Part shown: positions 2,462 to 59,300 of the stretch, one piece after another
How the letters are laid out: every line of letters begins with the position of its first letter
Position numbering within the stretch: the stretch's first letter is position 1
Source of the DNA: Balanoglossus misakiensis
Taxonomy: Eukaryota; Animalia; Hemichordata
Direction: 5' to 3'
DNA: 64,000 nt
NCBI GenBank assembly: GCA_040954595.2
Contig: CM082584.2
Coordinates: 3,848,110 to 3,912,109 of the forward strand
Notes under the pieces: generated by a model
The model's input: only the letters and a program-made list of their open reading frames with translations
Database searches by the model: none
What the model was told of the DNA's origin: nothing
Made by a program: the position numbers and the translations under genes

Positions 2462-2870
2462 TTATTATTATACATCTGGCACCGAGAACAATATAATTTG
2501 GCGTGCGCTAAAAAGGCGAGCAGAATGTTAAATATGCCTACAGTCTCAAGGCGCCCAAATTCACCGTGTATAGGTATGCACTACATGAATTAATGCGGAG
2601 GGTTCCATGACAACCTGACTCCCCAGAGTCCAACATAAAAAAAAGAAAGATGGCTGCTCACTGACAATGTGTACTGTGTTTCAGCTGAGCAGTTACGATG
2701 GATCGTACTGGCATTTTGACAGCCAAGTTACATGCAACACAAGAACTAACAGAGATGTAAGATGTATAATAATAAGGTTATTACGAAAATACCGCAAAGT
2801 ATGCACTCGGACATTAGCGCAGCGCATCGCCCTCTGCAACGCGTCGGGCGATATGCGGCGCTAATGTCCT
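2462..2870 (+). mobile_element. Non-autonomous Crypton-like element, 3'-truncated copy of the 32723-33177 family
   Basis: Collinear with 32723-33144: starts TTATTATTATACATCT, has internal AGATGTATAATAATAAGGTTATTACG at 2760, and the hairpin breaks at 2870. Confidence 0.7.
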
Positions 2871-2872
2871 TG

Positions 2873-3410
2873 TTATACACATACTGCTGTAACCTATAGA
2901 GTTCCGTAATACAATAATTCGTGGTATCAGAATAAAATAATTATTCAAATGCGTATGCAGAGTCCCATAGCACCAGGGTTATGGGGCGCATATTTGACCT
3001 TTGACCTCACAGCTGTTCAATGTAAACAATGATGATATTACACCCTACTCTGACAAAAATTGACATAAAAAGTACACAGGTGTTATTGAACTAAATTATT
3101 GGTGACCCAATGTGAAATAAGTCAAAATTGTCAATGAAATTTCAGCCGAAGGATTATGTGAACGAACGAGCGAGCTCAGGGGCGTAGAACGTTGTGCGCT
3201 AGACATCGGCATCTTGACAGCATAACCTGATGCGCGAGGTCAAGGCACGTTCGATATGCAGATTACTTCATGGCAGTGTCTGAAAACTAGATAGCAGCCA
3301 ATTTATCCTTTAACTTTCATGACGTCCGGAAAAGGTGTATAATAATAAGGTTATTCACAGAATATCGGGATTTATGTCTTCATACATCGTACGCTTCGGT
3401 ATTGTGAACC
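2873..3410 (+). mobile_element. Second Crypton-like non-autonomous element abutting the first (degenerate)
   Basis: Starts TTATACAC. Complementary internal site GTGTATAATAATAAGGTTATTC at ~3335, followed by a partial hairpin arm. Confidence 0.4.
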
Positions 3411-5055
3411 TAAGATAAAGGTTTTACTTTGTTTTGAAAACATATTTTACTATCTCTTATTTCAGACAGTTTTCTCCGGAAAGTACGCAAACCTGATCAC
3501 TTTCCTAGTCTGGGAATACCCATTGTACCGTCCTCTGATGTCATGGCATTATTTAACGTCGCTGGAGCCAAGCTGACAGATCAAGTAATTGAATGTTTGA
3601 TTGAAATTACACCAATTTTTGACGAACATTCAACAACTGGCAGTTGTTTACTGGACTTCTGTACTAATACTTGTAATTTCCGAGAAACAGCACCTCTTGA
3701 ACTTGTTTCCAATTTTCTCACTTTTCTGACCGAATCAAGAATTTCCATGAAGAAGGAGGAAAAATTATACATCAAGAACGATAAACATGTCCTATTTATT
3801 AAAAAATGAAGAGAAAGTTATCCCTTTTTATTAAAATAAAACCGAAAACATTTAGTTTAAGCTTTTAGTGAGTGAATTTCTGAGATGTATGTGGTTGGCT
3901 TTTCCAGCTTGTTGTTCTCTGTTTATTCTAATTGTGTGAAAAGTGCAGGGGGAGTTTGTCACAGAAACTCATTTTAATATCCACACAGACAGACAGACAC
4001 AGAGAATGGGAGGCCTATATGATGATGTGTACAATTAAATCATGTGACTGACTGCTGAGCCACTGATTGGATAGGCGAGAGGCAATGGTCTTGTACATTG
4101 TATAATAATCTAAACATTGCATAGAGCTTGCATGACGTTTTTGAAAAGGGGCTTGTTCCATACATGTACTTTTTAGATCATTTTATTCCTAGACATGTTT
4201 TTTTTTTCGTCTCTGTGATGTTTTTTTAGTGTCTTTCGCAATTTTATTATTCATTTTAGTGTTGTGTAAAGCGCATTGAGATTTTTTTCATGTAATGTGC
4301 TCTATAAGAAATAAATATTATTTTCATTATTATTATTATTACATCAGGATTTTTGAGTTCCAATCAATAACAAGAAGTGAAGGGTGTGGGTGTCCCCTCC
4401 CACATAAGAATATTTTGTAAAAAACAGAGCTTAAAGTTGCATTTGATCAATGAACTCAAATGCAAATGAACTCAATGTTGGGGAGGACCAATTTTACTTT
4501 TGCCACTCCACTTAAAGTTAATTAGCATCGGTGGGGTGGGGTGGCAAGTTCTCTGCCCGGGTACACTAGACAAACCAGCCAATAAATGAAATGTGGCGAA
4601 GAATGAAAGGTTGTGGGCGGAAGGGGTGTCCCCTTATCACATTAGAAATTTTTGTAAAATAAGGGGCTCGAAACTGCATTTTTGTGGACTCAAAAGCAGA
4701 AGTTGGGGGGGGGGCAAAAGTATGTGACCCCCCCCCCCCCTAAACATTTCGAAAAAAGATGACCCCCCACCACATTTGGATTTCAAAATTTAAGTGAACC
4801 CCCTCTGGATTTTGACGGCCCCAAGCCGTTAAAACTGAAGACAAAAATATATTATAGGCCACGGACAAGTGGAAATGAAAGCGCCACCACTGGTTGGCAG
4901 CGCATATTGTTGGCAGGGATATGCAAATTTACGAACTTTGACCCCGCTCTTGGACCAGCAACCGGCCAGGGCTGCAGTCGCCACCCGGCATCCGTAACAT
5001 CAACCACTCTTGTGGGCGTCTGCATTGTGGAGACTCTCGACTACACGCTTGCACC

Positions 5056-8000: not shown

Positions 8001-11000
8001 ATTTGGTAACCCATGACATAATTTCGAAATTGTCTCCTGAACCAGATTCAAAGGTTAAATATCAATTATACCCTGGCCCTTTTTATTTTTGTCTGCAACC
8101 ATATTGCAAGTGATTTTTGAAGTAGAAAAATCGTTCTTTTATATTGGGCTTTTTAGCTCCGCTGTCATTTTGGGGCAGCCAGTGTTTTACCAATTTTTGG
8201 TAAATAATCCCCAACATCCACTAATGCTTGAAACTACAGTGTAGGTTAAAAGACCCGTGTTTTTGCTTTAACCCTAACGCTGCCAAGTCAGTTGAAATTA
8301 TAACACACCATGCAGCGAACCCTCGATCGTGATTCGTCAATACGACGTCACGTGACCTGGGTCATTTCGAACTGTTGCCTAGGGCATCAGTTTGATCGGT
8401 TTCTGCCCGGACTGTTGCCCCGTCTTGATATAATTCCATTTTCAAACCAAAAGTTTCAAAAACTATCACCGCAATAGCAGCAGGACCTTCGGCCACCATA
8501 GGTAAATCCCCACGAAGGTAGTCTAGGCGACGAAAGCGTAACGCAGACGACACTACCGGACATTGTAGCAAAAATCTGACATTTGTAAACATGTCTGCCG
8601 CTACGAGTGCCAGTACTATAGATGCTGTCAAAACTTTGCCACGATTCGTCGATGTTTCTGAAGAAGACCTTGCTAGTATTGTCTCCGGGAAAGATGCTAA
8701 AAGAACGAAGACAATTATGAAGGGAGCTGTCAGTATTTTGGAGAACTATTGCGCTACTATTGGTACTACATTGGCCATCGTTGAACGAAATCGGATTGAA
8801 CTGTGCTTGCTACTACGTACATTTTATGCCAGCGTTCGGCGCACAGATGGCCAGTTGTACGCCAAAAAATCCATGATGTCGATAAGATATGGTCTCCAGC
8901 GACATTTCCAGAAGGTATCGGACATCGACATAATTAATGATAAGGAATTCAAGTCTGCAAATGAGATATTTTCGGCAATGATTGTGAAATTGAAGGCTGA
9001 AGGTAAAGCTGTCGTTCAACACAAGCAGCCAATCGCCCGGGAAGACATGGAGAAGATAATGTCGTCAACAGCACTCGATCAGACAACACCGCGGGGCCTA
9101 CAGAACAAGGTATTTATCGACATCATGATCTACATGTGCAACCGTGGCCGTGAAAATCTCCGGGACATGGAGAAAACCCATTTCAGCGTACAGACAGACT
9201 CAAAAGGCCTGAAATACGTATCATTTTCGCGTGATATGCTCACCAAAAACCATCGCGGCGTTGAAGACAGTGAAGCAACTCAGCAAGGGAGAATGTACGA
9301 GACACAAGATAAGTCTACTTGTCCGGTGACTTCCTTTGAACTTTATTTGGAGCGACTGAACCCACAGTGTACATCATTTTGGCAAAAACCTAAAAAGTGG
9401 TTTCAGATTGTTGAATCAGATGGGTCTACCGTGATTGGCTATGATAACGTTCCAGTTGGAAAAAACACTCTCGGGAACAAGCTCAAAACAATATCAAAGG
9501 AAGCCAACTGTTCCAGGGTGTATACGAACCATTGTCTACGTGCTACAACTGTAACAACGTTAGATTCAGAAGGGTTTGAAGCGAGACATATTATGAGTGT
9601 CAGCGGACATAAATCGGAGACAAGCATTAGAAGCTATAGCACAGTCGATGAAGAAAAGAAGAGAGAAATGAGCAGAGTTTTGTCAACGCGAATGCAAGGT
9701 GATGCCTGTCCCTCTACAAGTTCTACAAATATGGAAATTCAGCCTTTGGAAACCCCAAGCTCTCCCATACTGCCAAATTCACAAGAAGATGGCATACTTC
9801 GTGAACTGACTAACTCACCAATTTTTCCACTCAATATCCTGTCTCAGCAACAGGTGAAAAACAACCAAAGAAATGCAAATTATAAGTTTGAAGGATGTGT
9901 TGTAAATATCCACAATTATTGACACTGATAGCATGGTTACATGGAAATATCCAAAAAATTTCTGACTGTTGCAAATGTTGTTCTGTTAGAATTTTGAAAA
10001 TGTTAAAATAAAATTGTTTGTTCAGAAGCAACATACGTTTGTCATGCATGTGTTTGGATGTGGTGTGTGTCGTGTTTGGTGTGTTATAAAACACATGATG
10101 GCTGACATATTCGGGCAACAGTGTATTTTTGATGACCTCGGGACTGCCAGTCACACCAAAACAGTCTGTTTTCCCTCGGGCTACGCCCTCGGGAAAACAA
10201 GACTGTTTTAGTTGTGACTAGCAGCGCCCTCGGTCATCAAAATACACTGTTGCCCTCATTGTCAGTCATCATGTGTATACTGGTGTGATTTCCAGGGTGC
10301 CTAGAATCCTGGCTCCCAGGCCTGTTAGACTGCCAAGTGTGTTATTCAGTAGGGCCTATACAAGACCCTCAGACCAATACAGTGCAAACTAGTGCGATTA
10401 GGTACATTTTACAGGGGGCTCAGACTGCCAAGTGTGTCTAAGTACGTATGAGAGCCATGTCAAGACCGTGAAAATACGTTTTAGAAGAAAAATTGGCAAA
10501 TACGTATTTTAAGGGACTTGACACTCTAACCAGGTTTGACACCCAGTAGCATTAGGGTTAAGGCTAAGGAACACTGGTAAATGACTTGGGAACCCCGGTA
10601 AAACTCCTGCTATCTCCTAATATGACTGCATTGATATACCAAGGGCAACACCAGTAAAATGACTGGGGAACCCGGGTAACATTTACCTGGGTACTGCCCT
10701 TAACAAAAGACACTGAAGACTGTATCCACAGTCCCTCTACTGTGTTTAGACACACGGAAGGTGTGAGAAGCTGCCAACAATCTGCATGTATTTCACACAA
10801 AAAATCTTACTTGAGCTCAGATATGTATTATGGGAAGAATGATGGTCCTGGTATGGTGTGTCACTTGAACATACATCAGTGTCTTTCTACGCCACCCTTT
10901 GTCTTTTGTGTTCATTCAAAGATTATATGATGATATCCATTTTCTCTACAGGTGGATTGATAATGGGTGTAGGTATTGAAACGTCATCACACAAGCATGG

Positions 11001-14000
11001 TTTATTTCAACATACATGTGTAGCTTTTGAAATGGTACTAGCCGATGGTAGCTGTGTTAAATGCACCAAGGTAAGTGCTGACTTGTGTCAATCAGCTTGG
11101 AGATTGAGATATAAAGGCTACATGTAAGGGAATATGTTTATACATGTAGTTATAGTTGTTTATAGTTTAAAACCTCTGAATTTGTAACAGGGGGTCAATA
11201 AAATATGCAACTCAAACAAAAGTTCAAAAACTCAGCTTCCAGAAGATGTATGGTTTATAGGGGTTTTAACTTTGTCTTTGATGAGAAATAGGCCTCTGAA
11301 AAAGTCTTTACTGTTTTTCGTATTATTTTGCTTCCTGGCAAGGCATTAAGTGTATGTATTTGAAATTGATCAACATGAGACCAGATATACCAATGTAAGG
11401 TTAATCAAACATGACATGTATACATCATGAACGCTGACCAAATGAGATGCAAATGAGATGTCATTGATGCTTTTCGTGTCCAAAGTGTCTACAGTCTTAA
11501 GTTGATTGTCCTTTTGATACATATCAAGAATGACCAATGCTTAGTCACATAGGATAGATGAATTTTTAATATTTGCATGTTTAACTTATTTTGTTGCTAT
11601 AGCAGTTGAGTAGCAACAGTAAGTATACATGATACTATAGAGAGTGTGATGTAGTGTAGTGTAGTGTAGTGTGTTTTGATGTGGTGTGGTGTGTGGGGAG
11701 AGAACATGGCAAAGTACTTGTATTCATCATGATTTTTAGTCCCCAACTCTATAACAATACTGTTTTCACAAAAAATTATCCTTGTGGTTTGTAGGAGAAT
11801 ATTATCTCTAGTTAGGTCCCATCTGGTATATACCAGGGGGACTTTATGGAATCAGTGGTGTCTGTCTGTCCGTCTGTCTGTCTGTCTGTATGTCTGTCTG
11901 ACTGTCTGTATGTACGTATGTATGTATGTATGTATGTATGTATGTATGTATGTATGTATGTATGTATGTATGTATGTACATATGTATGTATGTGTGTGTG
12001 TGTATGTATGTATGTATGTATGTGTGTGTGTATGTATGTATGTATGTATGTATGTATGTATGTATGTATGTGTGTATGTATGTATGTATGTATGTATGTA
12101 TGTATGTATGTATGTATGTATGTATGTATGTTTCTTTGTTTGTTTGACCAATTGCAAGAAGGGACTTGTTGCTAAATGAATTATAAAAAACATAGAGCAC
12201 TTAGTGAAAGTATTTCTTGGACTCATTACAGGAGGAGAATCCAGATCTGTTCTATGCTGCACCTTGGTCTCATGGTACACTAGGATTTTTGGTCTCTGCA
12301 GAAATCAAAATTATTCCAGCCTACAAATTTGTGAAGATAGAATATACTCCAGTGCATAGCTTTGATGAGATTGTCAAAGTTTTCAGCGAGAAAGTGATGG
12401 CGAAACCTGGACACCAGTTTGTGGAGTGTTTAATGTACTCCGAAAATAAAGCGGTTGTCATGACAGCAAATCAGGCTACAAGTGCTGAACCTGACAAGGT
12501 AGGAAATTGATGATAATCTTAAGATAATCCAAGACATTCCAATGGACAATGCCTCAGGATAATCCTGTTCAGTTTGAATAATATCAAAATTACGTGTATT
12601 GGTGTAGCATTGCTATCAAATTGGGGAATGTGATGAATGATTCTTATCTGTGATGATTTCTTCATTTCTCTAAAGTCCACTGTCTACAATTTCTTACTTT
12701 CCCAATGTCACACTAATCTTGCAGTCTGTGAGTGAAAATTTCAGATATTTTATATTGTGATAATCATATACTTTTATCTGAATGCCAACATCATAAATAT
12801 ATGAACGTGCATGTTATCACTTGCTTATTTTGTGTAAAATTTGTCTTTCATATGTACCTATGGGTACACTAGTATGCACGTGTCTGTTTTAAAGTAAACT
12901 GTGTGTTTGTGAAACTGTCATAGAAATGCTATGCTGGCCGAATCTTTTACTGTCTCCGAGAAGCATGGCCCAAGATGGAATGATAAATTTGTAATAAATT
13001 TTCACACATGTTGTAGTAAATATACTGAACTGAAAGTTCCTTTAAATATCGCATGCAGGCTGAGTGAACAAAAAAATCACAGCAAGATTGTTTTTTAACT
13101 GAATGATCGTTTGTGTGGGGTTGTTGTTCATTGTTTTAGATAAACATCTATTGCCAAATGTTTCAGTCAAGTTCCAAACCAGCTTTGTATCAATTCAATT
13201 ATTCATAGGGACATCAATAGCTGTAATGACTGCAGCAGCTACTACTTGGTTGCTGATGTTGTTTGCACCCCTCCCCCCCCCCCCCCCCACAAATCCAGCC
13301 TCCCAGAGAAACTGACCAATCCCTAATATAGAGTCCTTCTTCTTCAACAGGTGAATTCTATCGGGAACTTTTGGAAGCCATGGTTTTTCAAGCATGTTGA
13401 ATCCTATCTGCAGACAAAAGGTGGCTTTGAGTATATTCCATTGCGTCATTATTACCATCGCCACACCAGAAGTATCTTTTGGGAATTACAGGTGAGACAA
13501 TCTCAACAAATTGATGATTGATATCTGATAAAATGTGAAACAGCTGAGATTTAAAGGGACAAAGTCTCTCTCTCTCTCGCTGCCCTTTTCCCATTAATTA
13601 TGTTTGATACAAGACACTGTTCATGTATTGTTATTCTACATGTGGATATATTGTGAATCAACGTTCAACCACACTCGCCTTCCATCCCGCTTGTAGACAC
13701 AAGAGTGAAAAAACTCGCCAAAATGAGTAATTGTATTCTACCATTTATTCATTTTGGGTGAGTTTTTACTCTCATATCATACAAGCAGGATGGAAGTTGT
13801 GTGTGGATGAACGTTCATTCACTACATAAACACATATACATTAACATAAACAATGTCTTGTATCAAACATGATTAATGGAAAAGGGGCAGTGAGGGAGAG
13901 ACTTTGTCCCTTTAATGGTTCTTGAACTTTTATTCATGAATATTCCAAATGCTTTGCTAACTAGTACTTGTAACAGTTTTAATTACATTTTGTATATAAA

Positions 14001-16541
14001 AACAGAATTTAGACAACTAGATTACATGTACATACAGGTATCGGTGTAGTGGCACCAACCAAATTTATTCAGGCAGACAGGTACTTGACTGATGTGGCAT
14101 ATCACTTTAATGTAGTTTACCAACATGGTTACACCAACACCATAATATCTCGTGGGCCTATTTGAGGGACTTGTATAAGCCCTACTGAATAACACACACT
14201 TGGCAACCTAACGGGCCTGGGAGCCAGGATTCTAGGCACCCTGGAAATCAAACCAGTTTCAACTGACTTGGCAGCGTTAGGGTTAAATCAAACGGAACTG
14301 TTCAAATTAAAGTCTGATATCTGTCAGTTTAAATGCTGACACTAGTGGGCGCTATTGCTCATAAAACCTCAAAGTCCCATCTTTATGCAGCTACAATCGG
14401 TTACAAAATGCAATAAAGGTACACTTATTCTGTTTTTCAGGACATCATACCCTTTGGTAACAACCCTGTCTTCAGATACCTGTGTGGCTGGATGGTTCCT
14501 CCGAAGATCTCACTTTTGAAGTTAACCCAAGGTGAAACTGTTCGACAACTGTATGAGAAACATCATGTAATACAGGATATGTTGGTTCCATTGACACGAC
14601 TTGGAGATTCTCTCAAATGCTTCCATCAACAGCTGAAAGTGAGTAGTTATGGAATTTATAATACATGTAGTATCAGTCAAAATATTGCTAATGAACATTA
14701 GGATCAAAGTGAGTATTTGAAAATTCAGACAGTGTATTAAAGGGACAAAGTCTCCCTCTCGCTGCCCTTTTTCCATTAATTATATTTGATACAAGACACT
14801 GTTTATGTTATTCTACATGTGGATATATGGTGAATCAACGTTCCACCACACACAACTTCCATTCCACTTATAGACCAGAGAGTGAAAAACTCTCCAAAAT
14901 GAATAATCCATCTCTACTGTTTATTCATATTGGCGAGATTTTTACTCTCATATCCTACAAACGGGATGGAAGTTGTGTGTGGTCAGCGTTGATTCACTAT
15001 ACATTGTATAGTCACAGAGAGTAGAATAACATAAATTGTATCTTGTATCAAATATAATTAATGGTAAAAGGGCAGCGAGAGAGAGACTTTGTCCCTTTAA
15101 AATCTGATTGCACTGAAATTGATCAATGTTTGTTTGTTTTTATGTCTGAATTACTATCCAGTTGTATCCACTTTGGCTGTGCCCTATGTTGTTGCCCAAT
15201 GTTCCTGGTATGGTTCATCCATCCGGGGATCAGGATGAAATGTTTGTAGATATTGGTGCATACGGAGAACCCAAACAGCCTGGCTTTGTTGCCAAGCCAA
15301 CAGTGAGAAATATCGAAGAGTTTGTACGAAGTGTTCAAGGGTAAGTAACACACTACCGTTTTACAGATTCATGTTGCTAGGCAATGGCCTTTATGGCCTG
15401 GTGGTAGAGACAATGTTGACATCAGGCTTAATAAAAAAAAATATGTGCTGTTACAATTACCTGGTTTTCAAAAATAGGGTAGGTAGGTAGAGAAATTTTC
15501 TAATTTTGCAATTTTGGTGCTTTGCTGTCAAATTGCCTAAGAGAGTGCCGATGTCGCTAATTTAGACAAAGAAAGCATGAACGACTGCTGTCAGTCTAGA
15601 AAAGAGTCTGTCTGTTTTCTGTCTGGGTCCAATTTTATTTGCCTGTCCATCCCTCAACAGTAAAGGCATATCTAGAACACACTGCAACCCATTAGTGCAA
15701 GTGAACAGTTACACTGACACTGATCATTCAAGTTTTTCACACAGATTTTATTAGAACCCCTTTACTAGCAAGATAATGGTTCACTTTAAGACTTCAATTT
15801 TCGAGGTGCATTATTACTACCGTAATCATTTCACCCAAGTTCCCTCTTTAGAGGTCCAACATTACCATAGTAAACAATGGGTTTGGACTCAAGTATGTGC
15901 TCCGCGCTCGGGATGTTCGATGGGTATGCTCTGGGTAGATGTTTACCACAAGATTGGTGGGACTGGGGGCATTGTCTAGCCTGTGACAGTGATAGGCTGA
16001 TTTCATGACATTATAAGATTTGCATGTTATATAGATATGTTGTTATGAACAGTCATGTTGCTATTGATGACATTGTTTAGAAACTACATGCGAATTGACC
16101 TTAGTACAAAGAATTGCATTTCTGTAATATGTGAAAGTGGTTAAGAGAGATTTGGGGTAAAAAGTCAATTTATAAACTCTGTGACTATAGTAGACATCAG
16201 ATTAGTTTTCTTTACAAAAATAACACCCAAAATTTCGGAAAATTCCCAAAACAGAAGAAATCACTATGGAATTAATCAAGTTGAATTTTTATACACAAAT
16301 TGATGTATAAATGTAAAATGGTACATCATTTATTGGTATGTGCTTAATATTTTCAATACTTTTTATCTTTTATTTTTATTTCTATAGTTTTCAAATGCTG
16401 TATGCTGATTGCTATATGACAAGAGAAGAGTTCAGGGAGATGTTTGACCATAGTGTGTATGACAAACTCCGAAACCAACTTGACTGTACCAAGGCATTTC
16501 CTGAGGTGTACGACAAGATATGTAAAGCTGCAAGACACTGA
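5056..16541 (+). CDS. DHCR24: Delta(24)-sterol reductase (24-dehydrocholesterol reductase)
   Basis: Exons 5056-5292, 5891-6152, 10952-11070, 12232-12498, 13351-13491, 14441-14638, 15162-15340, 16388-16541 join in frame. Motifs [64 protein letters not shown]-terminal [15 protein letters not shown]. Confidence 0.97.
6424..6965 (-). mobile_element. Degenerate Crypton-like non-autonomous element (hairpin at left end)
   Basis: GTTATTGCAA (6426) / TTGCAATAAC (6487) inverted pair. The adjacent TTATACCA (6501) is complementary to distal TGGTATAA (6952). Confidence 0.4.
8298..10279 (+). mobile_element. Crypton-type tyrosine-recombinase DNA transposon, apparently full length, in DHCR24 intron 2
   Basis: Ends defined by the interrupted MITE (GTTGAAA|TTATAACACACCA...CATCATGTGTATA|CTGG). 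Single YR ORF, ~190-bp terminal hairpin at 10091-10276, no RT/RNase H. Confidence 0.88.
8591..9922 (+). CDS. Tyrosine recombinase of Crypton type (DUF3504 / ZMYM-KCTD1-QRICH1-related), 443 aa
   Basis: Uninterrupted ORF. Catalytic set recognisable: R (CNRGRENLR), K (TKNH), HxxR (YTNHCLRAT), H (SGHKS), Y (SIRSYS). Also RRTDGQLY and CPV..FELY motifs typical of this family. Confidence 0.9.
   Translation: MSAATSASTIDAVKTLPRFVDVSEEDLASIVSGKDAKRTKTIMKGAVSILENYCATIGTTLAIVERNRIELCLLLRTFYASVRRTDGQLYAKKSMMSIRYGLQRHFQKVSDIDIINDKEFKSANEIFSAMIVKLKAEGKAVVQHKQPIAREDMEKIMSSTALDQTTPRGLQNKVFIDIMIYMCNRGRENLRDMEKTHFSVQTDSKGLKYVSFSRDMLTKNHRGVEDSEATQQGRMYETQDKSTCPVTSFELYLERLNPQCTSFWQKPKKWFQIVESDGSTVIGYDNVPVGKNTLGNKLKTISKEANCSRVYTNHCLRATTVTTLDSEGFEARHIMSVSGHKSETSIRSYSTVDEEKKREMSRVLSTRMQGDACPSTSSTNMEIQPLETPSSPILPNSQEDGILRELTNSPIFPLNILSQQQVKNNQRNANYKFEGCVVNIHNY
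11812..12145 (+). repeat. (TCTG)n/(TATG)n microsatellite preceded by a short inverted repeat; possible Helentron/DINE-like 5' end
   Basis: GTCCC-CTGGTATATACCAG-GGGAC hairpin, then ~280 bp of tetranucleotide repeat. Confidence 0.75.
13551..13915. mobile_element. Long-palindromic TTAA-flanked MITE (Kolobok-like), family A copy 1
   Basis: TTAA-AGGGACAAAGTCTCTCTC...GAGAGACTTTGTCCCT-TTAA, nearly fully self-complementary. Confidence 0.85.
14165..14286 (+). mobile_element. Fragment of the piggyBac-like MITE family
   Basis: Matches the 3' part of 36138-36450. Confidence 0.75.
14737..15100. mobile_element. MITE family A copy 2
   Basis: Same termini and internal sequence as 13551-13915. Confidence 0.85.
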
Positions 16542-27500: not shown

Positions 27501-30500
27501 CGAAGGTGATGGTGACATTACCAAAGGTGATGGTGAAAATGCCATAGGTGATGGTGACAAAACCGAAGAGAGTGCCACAAACAGTTTGCCAAATGGCACG
27601 GAAATTCAAACGGAAAATGTCGGTGAAGACTGCATCGATGGCATGTGTGAGGTTGATGTGAACGGCCAGGATAGTGAGGAAGGCAGGACAGACACCAGCC
27701 AAGTTGACACCACCAACTCTGCATCTGTCGTTGACGATGACACCAAAGTGACATGTGACAAAATGGACACTGGAGAATCATGTGATCAGAAACTGACCAA
27801 TGGAGTGAATGGAGTGTCGGATTCAGTCGACGATGATGGTTTTCTCTACCATGTGAAATGGGAAGGGTAAGATTAATGCATTTTGCATTTTCCCTTAAAA
27901 TATGTATTTGCCACTTTTTCTTCTAAAATGTATTTTGACTGTCGTGACATGGCTCTCATAAGTACTTAGACACACTTGGCAGTCTGAGCCCCCTGTAAAT
28001 GTACCTAATCGCACTGGTTTGTACTGTATTGGTCTGAGGGTCTTGTATAGGCCCTACTGAATAACACACACTTGGCAGTCTAACAGGCCTGGGAGCCAGG
28101 ATTCTAGGCACCCTGGAAATCCAACCAGTTTCAACTGACTTGGTAGCGTTAGGGTTAATCGGGTTTATAATACCTGCATATACTTCAGTGCATACATCTG
28201 TATGGGCTAATACCAGTTTTAGTACAATTTGAAAAAAAATATGATAAGTTAAATTAATGGTAACACAGACTGAAATAACTGCTTGACCATGAATGTCTAA
28301 GGAGTAGATTCATGTGATTTATTTCATGGAACAAGCAAAAGGCAAGAACATATAGAGGCATTTTTGTACAAATTTGTGTGTGAGGAGGCTTCACCTTTGG
28401 TGACCTTTTCTGTCATGCAAATTAGTTCACTTCAACTTCCGGACTTGGGTTTCAAAATTATGCCGGAACTTTTATGAATTAGGGTGTGTGTGTATGTTTG
28501 TTTATCCCAAGCCATTATCTGAGGCCAGGTTTATGCATGAATCGTGTGTATTTGACACAGTGATATGTTAAAGTAAAAATTGGATTCAACTAATCAGGTT
28601 TAACACATATGTCCTGCAGGTTTTGTTATGTAAAAGAAAAAAAGAACCTGTCATGACCCAGAAGCATAATGTATATTTGTTAAAAATGACACATCATGTT
28701 TTGCAGTGTATCATTATCAAGACAGCGAAAGTAACTTTCAGATTTAGTGGTGTTGTATAGTCTTGTTACGTTAGAGTTGTGTTGCATTTGGGTACAATTT
28801 CTACAATTTAAAGGCTCTACAGATAGCAATTTGTCTTCAGGTTGAGATTATAATATGGTTGTGATCACCAAATAGAGAGGTGAGGGGGAGATGCTTCTTC
28901 CATTTTTGCGAGATTTTTATCCGTAAAATGTTGGTCTTTCATCAGATATGAAGAAACCGTGGCATTGTGCAGTAAATATATTCGACCAAGAGCTCGGACC
29001 ATCTATGATTGGGACGATTTGGAAATTGGGATGAAAGTAATGGCGAATTACAATTCGGATAATCCTGAGCAACGTGGTTACTGGTATGATGTAGAAATAA
29101 CAGACAAGGTGAGTATGTTTATATGTTGCCCAGAGAGGCTATCTTGATTGACAGTGAGATAATTATTTTGCTCAAGCCTTTCTATGCATTATTTAACAAG
29201 TGAAAATCACTTTTACAGCAATTTTTATTTTATATATTTTCTCTTCAGCACAGCTTTAAAGGGACAAAGTCTCTCTCTCGCTGCCCTTTTTCATTAATTA
29301 TGTTTGATACAAGACACCGTTTAATGCCACAATAAATCTCTTTCCAGTTTCCACTTCAATTTTAGCAATTTTTCTTCAATTGAATCCGACTATGAAATGT
29401 CTCATGTATTTTTTTTTCTTTCAAATTTTCTCTTTCCATAGAGAGATTCAAGAACAAATAAAGAGCTGCGTGGAACTGTATTTCTTGGTATTGGAGGCGA
29501 TGTTTTACATAATTGTCGTATTGTGTTTATAGATGAAATCTTTAAAATAGAGAAAGTAAGCGAGGTCAACAGAGATGTGATATCGAACCCGGATGGTGCA
29601 CTTTTCAAACGTAAGTTTCACTCAAAAACTTGGTAAACCCTGTAAATTACCCACTTTGTTCTATCATAGACCTGTCCTGCAATGAAATATCACACACAGA
29701 CTACTGCAGTGTTCTATGAAAAAATAGATGCAGGATTAGTCACATGTTAGCTGTACAAAATAAATCAACGTTGGTGAGCGTGTTCATGGAGAACCAGTGC
29801 GCCCTCTAAGACCATATGATGCGCCACTGACTGAACAAACTCACTGGTGACTCAACAAAATAATCCACAAAGCATGCAAAAGTATAGGGACTGACTCAGA
29901 GAACCCTCCAATCGACTCTGGGCTTTTCAAGATTATGTTTGTTAGAGGGCACACTGCGTGGGAAGACATATATTTTGTTGGTTGTTGTTTTTTTGCACAT
30001 AGTTTCATTTGTACCATGGAGTGTTTGAATTCCGTGATTTACCTGATGCAAATGAATTTCTAGTGGAAACATGAGTCGATCTGCTGGTAGATTGTGCATG
30101 TGTGTGCTGGCTGTTCAAAAGATGTTTTCCTACGTAATGCTGTGCCCTGCTGTGATTGAGGGGGGGGGGGGGGGGTGTTCCTATCAGTGTACAACAGAGA
30201 ATTGAAGCAGCATTACTGTTTGTACGTACACCTGCTCAATAGTTAATGGATAATATGGGAAGAAACAAATGTTTTGCTGCATGGAATGTTCAAATTCCTG
30301 TAACAAATTCTCAAAGAAGCCCAGAAAAAGTGAAAACAGACCTGGTCTGTGCAATGTTTTATTTCTTCTATTATATATTCATATTTTGTCAGGTACAACT
30401 CTGCCAGAGTGTGATCGCTGCAAAGATAATCCAAGGAGAAAATGTAAATTTTGTGCTTGTCATATTTGTGGAGGCAAGCATGACCCAGATAAACAACTGA

Positions 30501-33500
30501 TGTGTGATGAGTGTGACATGGCCTATCATTTGAACTGTCTAGATCCCCCATTGGAATCCATACCTGAAGTTGATGATTGGTAGGTCTATTTTGGAAGAAT
30601 TTTCACAGCTTTTAGATGATTGGGGCCCCTGGTATCTTTGTCATGTAGCAAGAAATGTTTATTAGACAAGGAGATTCCCCAGCCTCCAGTCTTGGGGCTG
30701 GTCTGCTTGTTGTCTTCAATAACACATGATACAATGAAAATGGTTTGAGCTGCATGTACACTTAAAGGGACAAAGTCTCTCTCTCGCTGCCCTTTTTCCA
30801 TTAATTATGTTTGATACAAGACACCGATTATGTTATTCTACATGTGGATATATGATCAATCAACAGTGGTGTGTTGTGTAACACATTGACAGGCCATATT
30901 GGGGTTACAGGAAAAATTCTAAGCATGCACATCAAGAATCGTTGCTGGAGAGACCAAACCGAGTGACATTACGTACAACAGAGCAATAGGTTCCCCAAAC
31001 AGATTGTGTTTTTCCCCTCCAATATGAGTGTGTTGCAGTTGGTCAAGGAATAAGGGAAGACTGTGTGACTAATAAATAGTCATGTACATACACATATATA
31101 TTCTTGTCAGAATTGAAGCAAATAATCTTCTTATCTTTTGCTTCTGGCCAGGTATTGTCCAAAATGTAAGAATGACTCGGTTGTCATAAAAGCTGGAGAA
31201 AAACTGAAAAACAGCAAAAAGAAGCAAAAAATGGCATCTGCCACATCATCAACGAACAGAGACTGGGGAAAGGTAATTATTGGTATGACCTACTCACTAG
31301 CTGTGTGCCTGTCATTCCTATTACTTTGCGTGCTTAACCGTTTCACCACCTTGGTTTGGTCCAACTCCATTGTTTTCAATAGCAGGGGGTTGAAAAAATT
31401 GAGGAAGGGACTATTGAAATGCAGTACATGTTTTAATCTCATTTCATAGGCTTATGCTTAGAATTTTGAGAAAACAATGTTGCAATATTGTCATTGATTG
31501 AGCTCTCATCCAATCAGAATGGTGAATGGTAGCATGATATAATATAATTTATGAAAGAGCTGTTCAAGTATCTTGAGTAGTAATCATTCACAATTTTACA
31601 GCAAGGGACAAAAATTTCATTATATAGGTACATAATTTGGAAAGAGTGTTGTTTTGATATAAAATGGTAGACAGTTGCTGACAAGGAATATCCCTTGATA
31701 ATTAATTATTCAAATGTGTCGTCTACCAATCCTTCGAACCCCTGACCATTGTAAACTGATTTGGCATAAATCTATTCAGTAAATCTTTCCACTACTTTTA
31801 TGGCAGGGCATGGCATGTGTTGGCAGGACTAAAGTCTGCACAATTGTTCCCTCCAACCATTTTGGAGAGATCCCAGGCACCCAAGTTGGACAGATGTGGA
31901 AGTTTAGAGTTCAAGTAAGTCCTGTTTGGCGTGATGATTGTCATGGGTGCATATTTTGACATACTAATTTGTGATTTTGTTTCAGTCACCAGTGTACAGA
32001 TATCTTTGAAGGATAGCGACTTTCAAGTTTGTGTTTTGTATGTCCATTTAAATCCTGCCATATCACAGTTTCAGTTTCAATATGATTACAAGGTCTAAAA
32101 AGTCAGGTTGCAGACATCATGTACACGATTGGAACCCTGGCTTATACTAGGGTTATTGAGTGCCCAATATACCCAAGTACACTCAAAGGGCAAGAAAAAG
32201 GCTGGCTGTCACAGTGCGTTGACATTTCAGTCTGTGTGGTGCATTTGAGCATATATAACCCCGATATTTGTTGACTTGATAGGTCAGTGAGGCAGGTGTT
32301 CATCGTCCCCATGTTGCTGGCATTCATGGACGTGAAAATGAAGGTGCATACTCTATCGTATTGTCCGGAGGATATGAAGATGATTTGGTAAGTTTGAATC
32401 AAATGTGCACTATGCTGTTTTATAAGTTTGTGTATAACCGCTGAGGCTCGGTCCCATATGCCTTGTTCTCACTAAAAGTTTCGACACCAGTGTTATGCCA
32501 GTGTTTACTCTCTACAAACACAAGGGATTAGCCCACAGAATCTCCGTGCGTCCACACACTAAACTTTTGGCCACTCTTTTGAAATAAACACCGTCTAAAT
32601 CGCCATGTTTAGCAACACGGCAACTAACAAAATTGAGGATGTCGAGGACATTACAGCAACATGTTTCAGTTTCTATACCTGCATATGCGTTCTAGACGAC
32701 TTTGTGACAGTTTTGATAATGTTTATTATTATACATCTAGTGCCGAGAACAATAGATTTTGGCGTGCAATAAAAAGCCGTACGGAACGGTACGTACGGAA
32801 CGCGCGTTAAATAAGTTTTAGGTTTCAAGGCGCCCCAACTCACCGTGTACAGGTATGCGTTGTTATGCGGACGGTTTCAAGGCGCCCCCACTCCAACGCA
32901 CGTGCGCACACGTAAACAAAAAACAAAGATGGCTGCTCACTGAGTCAACTGAGCGGTTTTCGATCGATTGTATCGGCATTTTTGGCGTTTTGAAAGCCAA
33001 GTAACATGCAAAACAAGAACTAACGGAGATGTAAGATGTATAATAATAAGGTTATTACGAAAATACCGCAAAGTATGCACTCGGACATTAGCGCAGCGCA
33101 TCGCCCTCCGCTGCGCGTCGGGCGATACTTGGCGCTAATGTCCTCGTGCATACTTTGCGGTATTTTCGTAATAACCTCATAGAAGTAAATGAATGTTAAT
33201 CCATAAATGGAAAATGCCTCAGCTTTTCGGTGATCGAGAGAACTTTCCGAAAGTTGGTAGCAGACAGAAGTGTTGCAGACCTGGCAAACTGCGAATGGTT
33301 TGAAAACCACTCGCGTCCAGTGTGATTGACTTCACAATGGAAACTGACCAAAGACAATGGGCTATACCTAATAAACATACCCAAAAGTCACTGCAGGGTG
33401 GCGCTTTTGAACGGTGTTTGTTTATCTTTGCGTTCTCACTGATTATTTGCGTCGGAGCGCTGGCCCAGCACTGGCCCTGACCCACCACCCATCGCTGTCG

Positions 33501-36500
33501 CAAATTAACACCAAGGTGGGCGGAAGTTGGTCCTGGCGCTTTTTTTCCCATGATTCAAATTACAGTAAACGCCATATTGGAAATTCTGCCAACTTTCCCT
33601 AGATTTTGTAAAAAATCTCGTGACCTATACATGGCGAATATGTTTTTTTCTGAAAGAGAGACATCAAAGCTACCAAATTATGTAGAAATCAGCTACAGCG
33701 GATTTCCCCTTTAACACACACTTGGCAGCCTAACGGGCCTGGGAGCCAGGATTCTGGGCACCCTGGAAATCAAACCAGTTTCAACTGACTTGGCAGCGTT
33801 AGGGTCAAACCGTCCACACATAATAATTTACATTTCAGAACGGTCTAAATGTGTGACCCCCATACTAGAGTGGTATGTTGACCATTAAAAGTAAATTTCA
33901 TGAAACGATATGGTTAGTGGAGCTACGCCAGTGAGTGTTTAAATACATGTATGACACAAAATAAAAACTAATAAATGTTCTGCTTTGTTTTTTAGGATGA
34001 AGGTGACAGCTTTACATACACAGGAAGTGGTGGACGGGATCTTTCTGGAAATAAACGCACAGCTGAACAGTCATGTGATCAAAAACTGACAAAAATGAAT
34101 CTGTAAGTTTAACTGAGTGTGTGCAGATATGAAATGTTGGGAAATGGGTAGTCATTCGTACTTTAACCCTTTTACCCCCAGTTCCCTCTTTATTAGCCTG
34201 GTCTCCATATACCCCAGTGTGTTTTAGATTCACGACACACTACTGATTGGCCGGAGCAATGACCTGGGCGTTGCTAATAGTTGGAAAATAATTAGCATTA
34301 ATTGGCAACATGGTAACAGCCAATCAGTAGTGTGGCGCGTAAAGTGATTGACTTGAACGACCTCAGAGTCAAGACCGTGTGGTGATCTTGTTGCCTTGAC
34401 ATCCCGTTTTGAGTTCTATTGACATGCAGATCATCAAAAAAAGACGAGAGTAGACTGGCGTGTCCAGGCCCTCGTGGGTGAATCTAAAACACACTTAGGT
34501 ATGGAGACCAGGCTACCTCTAATATAGGTCCAACCAACCTGGTATGGCTTTGGACTGAACTATGGGGGTGAAAGGGTTAAGTACAAGGATGTGGCAAATG
34601 TATAGAGAAAATAGGAATACAACACAGAGACTGATTTTTTCGTGTGGCTACTGAGGATTTTATTGTCATTTTGTTATGATTGTAAAGAAAATTGGAATAT
34701 TGCAATGTTAGACAATTTGTGTCACTTTATGAAAGATGCTACCCAGAAATTGCCTGTCCGGTTGTAGTAAAATTTGGTTTGCATGTTCCTAGGCATGTTT
34801 GCTCACAAGTAGACATATACTGTAAAACACTTTATTTTCGTGAGTTGAAATTTTCGCGATATCGAGAGAGGCCACTGTTTCGCAAGTGTTCTCTTATTTC
34901 ATTCACTGCATCGTTATCTTCAAAAAATATTTACGCGACTTTTTATTTACACGCTATTTTGGCTCTCGTGTATTTCGCGAAAATTTATTCCTCGTGAAAA
35001 TAAAGTGTTTTACAGTATTTGGTCATGATTGTGCTATTGTAAAAGTGTCTCTGACTATTTTTGTTGATTTCAGAGCTTTGGCATTAAACGTAAATGCAGA
35101 TTTGGACAAAAAGAATGGAAATGAGGCCAAAGATTGGAGAGCTGGAAAACCTGTCCGAGTTGTCAGAAATTGCAAAGGTCGGAAACATTCCAAATATTCA
35201 CCAGAGGAAGGAAACAGATATGATGGAATTTACAAGGTAAATGTCTTTGGTGAATGTCTGATCATTTAAGCCTTTCACCCCCAGTTTCCTCAATGGAGGT
35301 CCACCTTTACCATAGAAAACAATGGATTTGGACCGAACCATGGTGGTGAAAGGGTTAATGACAGTCATGCTCTGGGATGAGCTTCTGTGAATATGATAGA
35401 GTATTTGGTTTTTTCATCACTCATATACAGGCTTTGTTGAGAATGCTAATAATAGAACATTTCATCAAGCTATCCAGAGTAGAACAAGAAACCAGTTAAT
35501 ACACTGGTGAAATATCCTGCACACGCACATGAAAATGTATAAGGATAAGGATAATACTATTTATTTCTTTAAAAAACGCTTTCAATATAAAAAACATCTC
35601 AAAGTGCCGAACACAACAAGATAAAAAGTAAACAAACAATTAAAATGTTGACACAGATATAGACATGCATGCATGCATGCACACATACATATATACATAC
35701 ATACATACATACATACATACATACATACATACATACATACATACATACATACATACATACATACACACGGTACAGTTATTTGAATAGAAATTTTATGATC
35801 TGGTTTGTATAGATAGTGAAGTATTGGCCTGAGAAGGGCAAAAGTGGTTTCTTGGTTTGGAGATACTTGTTGCGCAGAGACGACCCGATTCCAGCACCGT
35901 GGACATCTGCTGGAAAGAAGAGGATTAAAGAACTGGGATTGAAACTGGAGGTAAGTAAACATTACCACTGTGGATAGGTTACAAGGAAGTATGCAATAAA
36001 TTGGTTTGGTAAGGGGAGGAGATCAAGTTCAAACAGCTGGTACCTCACGAATTTTTTTGATTACACTGGGTACTAACTACTATTGGGGGGGGGGGGCACG
36101 GTAAAGAAATTAGCGGGCTTTGATTGGCATCCATGCATTAACCCTAATGCTACTGGGTGTCATATACCTGTTTCAGTGTCAAGTCCCTTAAAATATGTAT
36201 TTGCCACTTTTTCTTCTAAAATGTAGTTTGACTGTCTTGACATGGCTCTCATACGTACTTAGACACACTTGGCAGTCTGAGCCCCCTGCAAAATGTACCA
36301 AATCGTACTGGTTTGCACTGTATTGGTCTGAGGGTCTTGTATAGGCCCTACTGAATAACACACTTGGCAGTCTAACAGGCCTGGGATCCCGGATTCTAGG
36401 CACCCTGGAAATCAAACCAGTTTCAACTGACTTGGCTGCTTTAGGGTTAAATCTGCTGTTAGTCTGTTAGGTGCATTGTTAGTAAACTTGATTTATATGT

Positions 36501-40009: not shown

Positions 40010-40337
40010 TTAAAGGTACAAAGTCTCTCTCTCGCTGCCCTTTTTCCATTAATTATATTTGATACAAGGCACCCTTCTTATCTTATTCTACATGTGGATA
40101 TAATGAATCAACGTTCAACCACACACAACTTCCATCCCACTTGTAGAGGCAAAATGAATAATCGGTGTTTACCATTTATTCATTTTGGCGGGATTTTTAC
40201 TCTCATATCCTACAAACGGGATGGAAGTTGTGTGTCGTTGAATGTTGATTCTCTATATATCCACAAGAACAACGGTGTCTTGTATCAAACACAATTAATG
40301 GAAAAAGGGCATCGAGAGAGAGACTTTGTCCCTTTAA
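40010..40337. mobile_element. MITE family A copy, in the probable UHRF1 3' UTR
   Basis: Same family as 13551-13915. Confidence 0.85.
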
Positions 40338-56300: not shown

Positions 56301-59300
56301 TTACAGTGACTGCTCTTCAAGAATCAACTTGTAACTCTGTCGATCTACAAATCTTGCCAAACATTGATTTCTGTGAGTACAATGATTAGAACCCCTAATT
56401 TACCTATTATTTTAAATATAAGCAGTGTTGAAGGTATACAGTCACATATTTATTTTGAGTTGCAGCTCATAGGGCCTTAAAGGTATACAGTCACCTTAAA
56501 TTTACATACGTCCATAGATGGCCATATGTCAGAAATGGTGTATTTGAGCGTTCTAAAGAACATATGGTGGCGCTCTTTTCTCGCATGTGCCACCCACTGA
56601 AAATCTGTGATTGGCTAGATCTCAATTTGCCATGGTAACTATAGCTAATTTTCCATAGGTGACCGTATATCTTTAATGTAAACTTTAAGAACTTCATGAA
56701 AAAAATTATACTTGAAAAGGGCTCCAAAACATGAATCATGGCAACAATAATTATCATTTATGTAGTGGAATAGTAAATATAATTGTTTTTAAATATTTTT
56801 GGTGTATAAAGTCATTCAGATATCTGTATGTGTTGTTGCATCACTGCAAACTTTAGAGGCCGAAAATAATTGCAAAGACGCATCCCCCATTGTTATGCGT
56901 TTCTGTGAAATATTAATGTCTCATTTTGTTTTCATCAAAGCCTTGGAAGCTAGCAAGAGGAGAATCATGAATTTAAATCTCTCCTGCGTCCCGGATCACT
57001 ATACTGAAGATCAAAGACTTATTTATATGTCTTCATTAGTGCCATTCGAACAAATCAACATGGTAAGGTGGTTGGTGAAATATAAAGAGCATTGTTTTCC
57101 CCCTACTTCAACAGGTGTTTTCATACACAGTATTTCTATTGAGCAAAATCCAACTAGGATCTAGTCATGACTAATAGAATCTCACACTCCCAAGGACCTG
57201 GGATCATATTTCTCACATGAGTTGGGGATTTTTTGTCCCACACGAACCTGCAGCTCGTGTGGGACAAAATATCCCCGACGAGTGTGAGAAATATGATCCC
57301 AGGTCCTTGGTGTGTGAGATTATATTTCTCACACAGTCACAAATTAGCCGAATTCGTTAAAAAACATTGGATAAATGACTCTAGAACCGTCGTCTGGGCA
57401 TGTTGTAGTCTCTGTCCCTGTAATACACATCGTGCCATTGGATAACATTTAGTGCGCGTTGGCAAGAGAACGCTTTGTCAACCAATCGGCGCTGACGTCA
57501 TGTACAGCTTTTGATTCAGTGAGAGTGTGGGATCGATTTTTTTCAGACTTTGATCCCACACTCCCAGCGTGCCAGGAGTGTGAGAATAAAATAATTCTTA
57601 CTGGTGAATATATTTGGTCCAATTGTCCACCTTTACTTGAAGTCAGTGCCTGTATGAAAATCATCACAAATCAAGTAATTCTTTGTCAAGGATAAACTTT
57701 TAGACTCCGTACAATGTATTCACTCAAAGTGAAAGTTCAGAGGACCTATACTGAAATTGCAAAAGTATGGTAAAACATGCACAAATAGTTGTCCAACACA
57801 CAAACAAATTGATTGTAGATGTAACTTTATTTCATTATTCACTGATTTCCAGTGTTCAGGACAGTAGATGTAAAATAATCATGTATACTGGTGGTAATAA
57901 ACAAAAGTTAGATGTCTGTAGGATCAGAATGTTCCAGCATTAATGGAAGTCAATATAGTATTTTCACATTGTATTCATGTTTCAGGTGCGTGCAGCCGGT
58001 GGTTTGCTGAAATATTTGGATAAGAAAAGAATTGGAGTGGAACTTGAAGATCAAAGTGTCAGAGTTCCAGTAATTGGTCTTCAAGTATTCACTTTGTAAG
58101 TAGACTTTAGTGATTTTGCTGCTGTTATTGAAACAAAACATGTAGTGTCTAAAAGGGGCAAAGTTGCTCTCTTTTGATCTTTTTATGCTCTCATGTCATA
58201 CTTGGGGAGCAGGGGTTGGGGAGGGGGTATGTACATGTATATGGCTGGGGGGATATTCGTATTAGCCTGTCTGTATTATGTAAGGGGAGAACCATTTGAT
58301 TTCGGGGGGGGGGGGGGGGATTTGGATTTAGTATAGTTTTCATGGTTTAGTATGATACATGTATAGCATGGTACAGTATGGCGGCCCATTGCTGCCTTTG
58401 GTAAAATGCATAAATGTATATCTATAGTTTGTGTGTTTTTGTTTGTGTTTTTGTTTGTTTGTGTGTTTTTGTTTGAAAAGAAAATGAAAAGAAATTAAAA
58501 ACAAAACAAAATAAAAATATAAATAAAATAAAAACGAAATTAAAAACAAAATTGAATAAAAAAAAATTTGAAAAGAAAAGAAAACAAACTAAAATGAAAA
58601 GAAATTAAATACTGGTCAACTGTTAAAAAAAACTATTACAAACTCCACTCTGCCTGTAGACAGACAAGATTAAACGTTCAAAGAATGAGTGCTCGATCTT
58701 CCACAGTAAAATACTTCAAATATATTCCCTATCCTCTAAAATCCTCACCATTAAGCCATATTACTTGCATTTGCATCAGTTTGTCATCTCTTCATACTGT
58801 TTGTATGGAGGCTGATTAAATCGGTGCTGCACCGTTTTAATAAATAGCGGTCAGATTGCAACATGTGGTCACAATCATGCATCGATAAGGTGTTCATGTA
58901 TACCTATCAGTAAGCTTATTTATAGATGAATCAATTTAAGTTGGAAAATATAACCATGAAAATAATGCAAAAAGTGGCAGCTGTAGGCTTTAAGGTGTGA
59001 CATACAGCAAGGACTGCAGTAGACAAAGTATACATGGAGTATGTGTGTTGGTTCATCTGTTGAACATTCCAGTTGTAGGAAATAAAGTGTTTGATCTGGA
59101 GTAATTTCAAACGCATGGCCGCGACTTGATCATGTGTGTGTTTTGGTAGTTATGTTTCTATACTTCATGTCATCGTTGTTGTTGTTGTTATTGTTATTGT
59201 TGTTGTCTTTAATCTAGTGAGATAAAAAAAGTTATTGCGATTTTTTATGTTGAATCTTTCAGGAACAAGATGTTAATGGTTGACCACAATACTTACAATG

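Follow-up and report, generated by a model that had tools for sequence, protein, structure and literature searches.

The 64,000-nucleotide stretch of Balanoglossus misakiensis DNA analyzed here (hereafter, the window) contains a real and intact transposon that, judging from its sequence, is of the CryptonA type, and the design of its ends points to a single-strand mechanism of transposition. Transposition probably proceeds through a folded single strand of the element's DNA rather than through the double-stranded circle that is usually assumed. Kojima and Jurka (2011) describe animal Cryptons as lacking terminal repeats (PMC3212892), and the transposition mechanism of Cryptons is undemonstrated experimentally according to a 2026 review (PMC13565253). 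No earlier description of a left-end complement combined with a 3' hairpin in Cryptons was found in searches of the openly accessible literature; this end design appears to have remained undescribed so far. The coordinates of the features are given in Table 1.

Table 1. The element, its parts and insertion site, and a second family of similar design in the window
Feature	Position	Strand	Details
Whole element	8298..10279	+	1982 bp, or 1981 bp if the terminal A belongs to the target; defined by the empty site and the loose ends of contigs
Left terminus	8298..8310	+	Pairs with the internal site; exact 13-nt inverted match
Tyrosine recombinase ORF	8591..9922	+	443 aa; R185, K219, H314, R317, H340, Y349; low-confidence tail
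Internal complement of the left terminus	10077..10089	+	Left half of the splint; kept in the listed derivative joints
Terminal hairpin	10091..10276	-	186 nt; the right half of the splint lies at its base; folding favours the antisense strand
First tandem G·A loop (antisense)	10111..10257	-	TC 10111-10112 opposite TC 10256-10257 on the + strand; 1-nt bulge at 10108
Second tandem G·A loop	10138..10231	-	10138-10139 / 10230-10231
Hairpin cap	10176..10190	-	Third tandem G·A loop (10176-10177 / 10189-10190), 4-bp stem, 3-nt loop 10182-10184
Host MITE split by the insertion	8267..10564	.	Pieces at about 8267-8297 and 10280-10564
Intact MITE copy (empty site)	36135-36451		93% over 318 nt
Further empty-site MITE copies	27891-28158; 14163-14292; 33716-33809
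Gene-less element of an unrelated family with matching design	32723..33176	+	Left end at 32723-32738, with its internal complement at 33034-33049
Decayed second copy of that family	2462..2890	+	Left end at 2462-2477, with its internal complement at 2760-2775; position of the right end approximate

An intact recombinase element inserted in a MITE

When positions 8298-10279 are cut out, the flanks form a MITE to which four further window copies can be aligned with no gap at the insertion point, which upholds the ends and the 0-1 bp duplication proposed in the first-pass annotation. Depending on whether the A at 8297 or 10279 is counted as common to both, element and target share 0-1 bp. Sequencing contigs (see below) diverge into mixed flanks before 8297 and behind 10279-10282, and both ends are thereby fixed. 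There are neither foreign coupling bases nor a 4-6 bp direct repeat at the ends, such as characterizes CryptonF and CryptonS. The two termini do not repeat each other in either orientation; long inverted terminal repeats are absent from the element, where the inverted match, to the internal site, extends over only 13 nt. Exchange of two strands over a 6-8 bp overlap normally leaves a direct repeat or coupling bases as a trace, as is also generally known for tyrosine recombinases (YRs) (PMC3212892). No second copy of the element is present in the window.

The only ORF of the element encodes a YR that matches DUF3504 (32.4 bits, cut-off 29.7) and Phage_integrase (28.2 bits, cut-off 27.1). All residues of the catalytic R-K-HxxR-H-Y set, described as intact at the outset, are indeed present in the ORF; the catalytic motifs are conserved across 26 aligned sequences, and R-H-R-Y is retained, unlike in the domesticated DUF3504 genes. 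Of the 257 homologues, those closest to it that carry a name come from echinoderms and molluscs. No Pfam hit to a C-terminal domain was obtained beyond residue 377 of the scanned frame. The structure model has a mean pLDDT of 76.7, which drops below 50 over residues 371-426. Foldseek returned QRICH1 and Cre as the first matches; in a wide structure search, the model matched Cre with Z 15.8 (rmsd 6.9, 279 aligned) and Xer with Z 15.6, and the integron integrase 2a3v ranked below both (Z 12.3, rmsd 7.2, 246 aligned). Searched by sequence, the solved structures yielded two matches, XerA (E 0.0011) and an integrase from a staphylococcal source. The element contains no gag, RT or RNase H ORFs of the DIRS1 kind and no Rep/helicase transposase of the Helentron/HINE kind, which bears out its earlier description as an RT-less YR element.

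By these sequence features, the element fits a CryptonA-type tyrosine-recombinase DNA transposon. It resembles the CryptonA of animals in encoding a single DUF3504 YR with intact R-H-R-Y and no C-terminal domain, in its size, which is inside the listed 1.2-2.3 kb, and in its abundant non-autonomous derivatives, which measure 353-554 bp in that list and about 330-360 bp here, as implied by the deletion joints described below (PMC3212892). Terminal repeats are given as 'n.d.' in all 8 CryptonA rows of the same list, whereas the element has a left-end complement and a long strand-biased 3' hairpin. The available portion of a 2026 paper on fungal CryptonA makes no mention of a hairpin or palindrome (PMC13465315).

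A GT-rich, microsatellite-like run (10040-10089) lies immediately before the internal site. At the left end of the element, 8320-8420, there are CACGTG and GACGTC palindromes, which are promoter-like, and a 9-10-mer that occurs twice (8371, 8411) is also found in the hairpin (10246); a search for 9-mers common to the left region and the hairpin yielded nothing consistent. To the right of the element, at about 10900-11100, there is a reading frame resembling a host-gene exon, putatively of the sterol-reductase (DHCR24-like) kind; the element would then sit in an intron.

The internal complement and the terminal hairpin

The left terminus is, as first annotated, the exact 13-bp reverse complement of the internal site, and the match ends at 13. 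A 13-nt left-end match inside the element has a chance expectation of 4e-5; the 13-mer of the internal site occurs only once in the window, where a loose form of the internal-site pattern is found at chance level (6 seen, 6.5 expected). When the full-length antisense strand is folded, the left end pairs with the internal site with a probability of 0.81-0.98. The first-pass annotation further placed a complement of the right terminus at 10091; the sequence there is complementary, but rather than a short site, it is the 5' arm of an imperfect palindrome. Likewise, the internal site was read as the complement of the end-to-end junction, and both of its parts do pair, but the correspondence is not exact, the site being 2 nt shorter: it reads TGT-T-TTAT against TGT-ATA-TTAT in the predicted junction, with one T in place of ATA. 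The two stems abut on one continuous stretch, so that both termini are placed side by side. In the predicted junction, TGTGT/ACACA half-sites are separated by 8 nt, much as in a standard core. What stands of the ICR-like splint originally proposed for one strand is a cis-part that is supported as conserved by its presence in derivatives from sequencing reads and in homologues of other sequence; the likeness to the DIRS ICR is one of layout only because the element has no RT.

The palindrome that forms the terminal hairpin is 83% matched and has a DNA MFE of -75.9 (z -13.46, 0 of 200 shuffles); Rfam gave no match. Three TC/TC loops on the + strand of the window hairpin correspond to tandem G·A on the antisense strand, in a pyrimidine-GA-purine context. 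The cap loop reads GTA on the antisense strand of the window copy; most of the contigs from reads have T at 10184, and their loop is therefore ATA, not GNA. Tandem GA pairs between a pyrimidine and a purine, like GNA loops, are known to form stable structures in DNA; an RNA mini-hairpin with the four-base loop is far less stable than its DNA counterpart, at 39 vs 76.5 C (PMC10085684, PMC13037366). The computed DNA energies of the two strands, -76.2 and -74.2, are only 2 kcal/mol apart; with RNA parameters, the difference is 11.6.

The orientation of the loops was compared across 24 downstream hairpins, drawn from 19 homologous loci and the window, with all 2x2 loops read on the sense strand. 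Among the 36 such loops, 25 are TC/TC, that is, antisense tandem G·A, and one is GA/GA, this single exception being in the second hairpin of locus L059. When loci are grouped by ORF cluster, the window included, TC/TC dominates in 9 of the 15 clusters, neither type in 6 and the reverse in none; a sign test over the 8 informative homologous clusters gives p 0.008, with the relatedness among clusters not corrected for. The strict mini-hairpin motif GCGNAGC/GCGNNAGC, with a GNA/GNNA loop, is found at the apex on the antisense strand of 9/18 hairpins and on the sense strand of 0/18, in a set where 13 of the 18 hairpins had been chosen for their loops and where looser motifs, added after inspection, were left uncounted. 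The families in the loop and apex counts have common ancestry. Most of the 5' arms of the hairpins cannot be aligned to each other. Loci L001, L003 and L005 have the layout, yet their folds contain no intact TC/TC loop. As read from sequence, the strand bias of the hairpins supports folding of one strand.

The same design recurs in the window in an unrelated, gene-less family (Table 1), the better preserved copy of which has a hairpin starting at about 33050, with TC/TC loops and a GCA apex on the - strand. Just before the decayed copy there are a few bases similar to the right end of its own family. Other palindromic sequences in the window include a long hairpin at 57168-57331, with one GA/GA loop on the + strand and no matching end within 1.5 kb; a near-perfect hairpin at 1343-1445, with a four-base GACA apex on the - strand, for which no matching end was found; and another multi-copy palindromic MITE-like family (13551-13915, 14737-15100, 40010-40337 and shorter pieces).

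Homologous loci and sequencing reads

Of the 175 confirmed homologous loci, 80 were kept; no related locus was confirmed in viral contigs (37 pattern hits) or prokaryote genomes (33 pattern hits). A downstream hairpin with a score of at least 45 is present in 19 of the 80 loci, compared with 8 that have an upstream hairpin, and is absent in 61; at least 450 nt of downstream DNA is present in 51 of the 80. The downstream hairpins of L067 and L077, as well as the second hairpin of L059, probably belong to neighbours. The left end was assessed against 200 shuffles per locus in the 19 of 21 candidate-hairpin loci with upstream DNA, and the complement is kept in five of these (L001, L003, L004, L005 and L006), all among the six best-ranked loci. 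The protein identity is 47-50% for four of them and 45% for L003, which is related to L001. The left ends of the five loci differ in sequence, and each is complementary to its own pre-hairpin site; the co-variation of termini and internal site, which the initial analysis had suggested as a test, is seen in these 5 of 19. A true left-end match is absent in the other 14, several of which have short upstream DNA; L046, L057, L059 and L063 each have more than 1.5 kb upstream and no match. The match in L009 beat all 200 shuffles and was dropped because it is an inverted neighbouring copy; the one in L077/L078 was left uncounted as weak (p of about 0.01 for 136 nt of upstream DNA and of 0.32 for 3001 nt).

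The splint reads TGTT|TTRT in every one of the five loci. The right end is TGTAT-A in the window, L003, L006, L024/31/42 and L026, and is damaged or different in L001, L004 and L005; thus, the 2-nt excess of the junction recurs wherever both splint and right end are readable. The contigs of L001 and L006 both begin and stop within a few bases of element-type ends.

Hairpin-ended elements also lie beside YR genes, in either orientation, in L009 (1055-1383, 3374-3700, 3776-4222), L059 (998-1086, 3184-3258), L049 (1-184) and L075 (543-808); such elements may insert near or into one another. In L046, at 4480-4680, the 3' arm of a hairpin continues into sequence that is perfectly complementary to the internal site, as would be seen in a junction-like or head-to-tail arrangement.

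The family is also represented in three sets of contigs from sequencing reads, all from one sample of one study, which are about 2% off the window sequence in the ORF. The summed contig depth, which is not a copy number, reaches tens to hundreds of thousands on both ends and 0-260 on the ORF, so that the depth at about 8298-8440 and 10055-10279 exceeds that of the ORF by 2-3 orders. The deletion joints among those listed (8398>10074, 8410>10055, 8435>10071, 8436>10071) land just before the internal site and, at the level of contig sequence, show gene-less derivatives in which the left end, internal site and hairpin are retained; in one contig of the X3 set, the left part seems to be fused to a point near 10108, with the internal site missing. 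Neither an end-to-end (circle) joint among the joints listed (15 of 36) nor a contig spanning the whole stretch among the contigs listed was found. In the X1 set, 10 loose ends fall before 8297 and 15 at 10282, a pattern of positions that hints at a target preference just to the right of the shared A. Of the 276 right-end contigs of this set, 245 are at least 95% alike. At 8359, 10101 and 10184 (C>T at the last), the window copy departs from the majority of contigs, and these private differences imply that it is not brand new. The suggestion of recent activity is therefore upheld only in part, by the intact ORF and by family contigs that are mostly at least 95% alike, and is qualified for this copy.

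A proposed single-strand route and its alternatives

On balance, we favour the interpretation that the antisense strand folds into the recombinase substrate and that one strand is exchanged, as at integron attC sites. The antisense strand would be exposed at a replication fork or in a cruciform, with the G·A loops and the mini-hairpin cap favouring this strand over the other, and, once folded, would hold both termini on the splint. The recombinase would then cut the antisense strand at both ends beside the one shared base, the flanks would be rejoined, and the element would close into a rod-like single-stranded circle with the 2-nt excess at its junction. The target of this folded junction would be a single strand of a short site with loose sequence requirements, and the product of the single-strand insertion would be resolved when the DNA is replicated. 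The gene-less derivatives, which keep both ends, would use the enzyme in trans; priming at the mini-hairpin, as a cause of the rise in copy number, is a guess. Exchange of a single strand would account for the missing direct repeat, and a folded strand as the substrate would account for the structure being conserved more than the sequence. Counting against this route, the computed energies of the two strands are nearly equal, and the predicted fold of the recombinase is no closer to the integron integrase than to Cre. Also against it are the 14 of 19 loci that lack a left-end match, the 61 of 80 that lack a downstream hairpin, the missing TC/TC loops of L001, L003 and L005, the ATA cap loop of most contigs, the X3 contig with no internal site and the lack of an end-to-end joint among the 15 of 36 joints listed.

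The published model of Crypton transposition is a double-stranded circle with exchange of both strands (PMC3212892; called untested in PMC13565253), under which the internal site and hairpin arms would be binding sites for the recombinase or host factors, or a cruciform that gathers the ends. The core-like spacing of the half-sites in the predicted junction and the Cre/Xer-like fold of the modelled recombinase agree with this model, but it leaves unexplained the in-register mismatches across arms of unrelated sequence, the strand bias and the absence of a direct repeat, and L004, L006 and the L024 family show no obvious symmetry of the half-sites; we consider it rather unlikely for this element. 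A borrowed RT could, alternatively, copy the sense transcript into an antisense cDNA; this would fold on the internal site, in the way that DIRS cDNA folds on its ICR, before the recombinase of the element inserts it. Such a retro-route in trans is attractive because the favoured antisense strand is the one that an RT would make, and the DIRS-1 cDNA is antisense, single-stranded and ICR-dependent, with a 3' hairpin suggested as primer (PMC7192593). However, the element encodes no RT, it has just a 13-nt match, in place of long inverted terminal repeats, for restoring the left end, the recombinases of DIRS elements have no DUF3504 match, and most fungal CryptonA genes have predicted introns (PMC13465315), which together make this route improbable in our estimate. 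Finally, the arrangement could be an accident, in which 8298-10089 is an element of 1.8 kb bounded by 13-bp terminal inverted repeats and adjoins an unrelated palindromic MITE: the two parts are adjacent, each resembles a familiar unit, and some of the hairpins in the homologous loci probably belong to neighbours, as noted for L059, L067 and L077. But the empty site ends at 10279, the derivatives carry the left end, internal site and hairpin as one, the order of the parts is repeated in five homologous loci and in the second window family, and the contigs of L001 and L006 terminate close to these very ends; accidental adjacency is already largely refuted and, in our view, very improbable.

The single-strand interpretation has precedents in bacteria. 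In the attC/IntI and CTXphi/XerCD systems, a YR acts on an imperfect palindrome of one folded strand, unpaired features choose the strand, the structure is conserved and the sequence little, and the product is resolved by replication (PMC4792948). In contrast to the element, which carries its own enzyme and both ends, attC is bacterial and depends on extrahelical bases and the I2 domain (PMC4792948). DIRS-1-type elements share with the present one a YR, an internal stretch complementary to both outer ends and a folded form that is probably the antisense single strand, but gag, RT, RNase H and the long inverted terminal repeats of the DIRS-1 type are absent here (PMC7192593). The DIRS ICR is described as exact, whereas the site in the element consists of 13 nt and a hairpin arm and is 2 nt short; the role for which the ICR has been tested is downstream of reverse transcription (PMC7192593). 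At the sequence level, unpaired features that could select a strand in an imperfect palindrome, as in attC, are present in the element.

Helentrons and HINEs also have a subterminal inverted repeat followed by a 3' stem-loop and make no target duplication, but they use a Rep/helicase and their hairpin is short. Eulor5/6 are reportedly described as hairpin-and-tail in database notes. Eulor5/Eulor6 and the non-autonomous Cryptons of salmon are similar to the derivatives described here in being short, with conserved termini, but a hairpin, palindrome or stem-loop goes unmentioned in the accessible text of the report on them (PMC5753468).

The mechanism lends itself to tests with oligonucleotides, since this copy offers an enzyme that is intact, precisely located ends, an empty site, natural mini-derivatives and a fold that is defined. 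The broader proposal, that animal CryptonA are single-stranded YR DNA transposons with a self-splinted fold marked by tandem G·A and a cap, peeled out as a circle and pasted in by one strand exchange, is tentative, and we rate its chances at a little short of even. If true, animal CryptonA would be to eukaryotes what integron cassettes and CTXphi are to bacteria, moving through a single strand in a manner that we have not found described for eukaryotic recombinase transposons, and the DIRS ICR would be linked to a DNA-only ancestor or descendant. The proposal would also explain why Crypton ends have been hard to call and provide a structural rule for their annotation, and it would bear on compact, scarless integration tools and on the origin of the DUF3504 genes (KCTD1, ZMYM, QRICH1).
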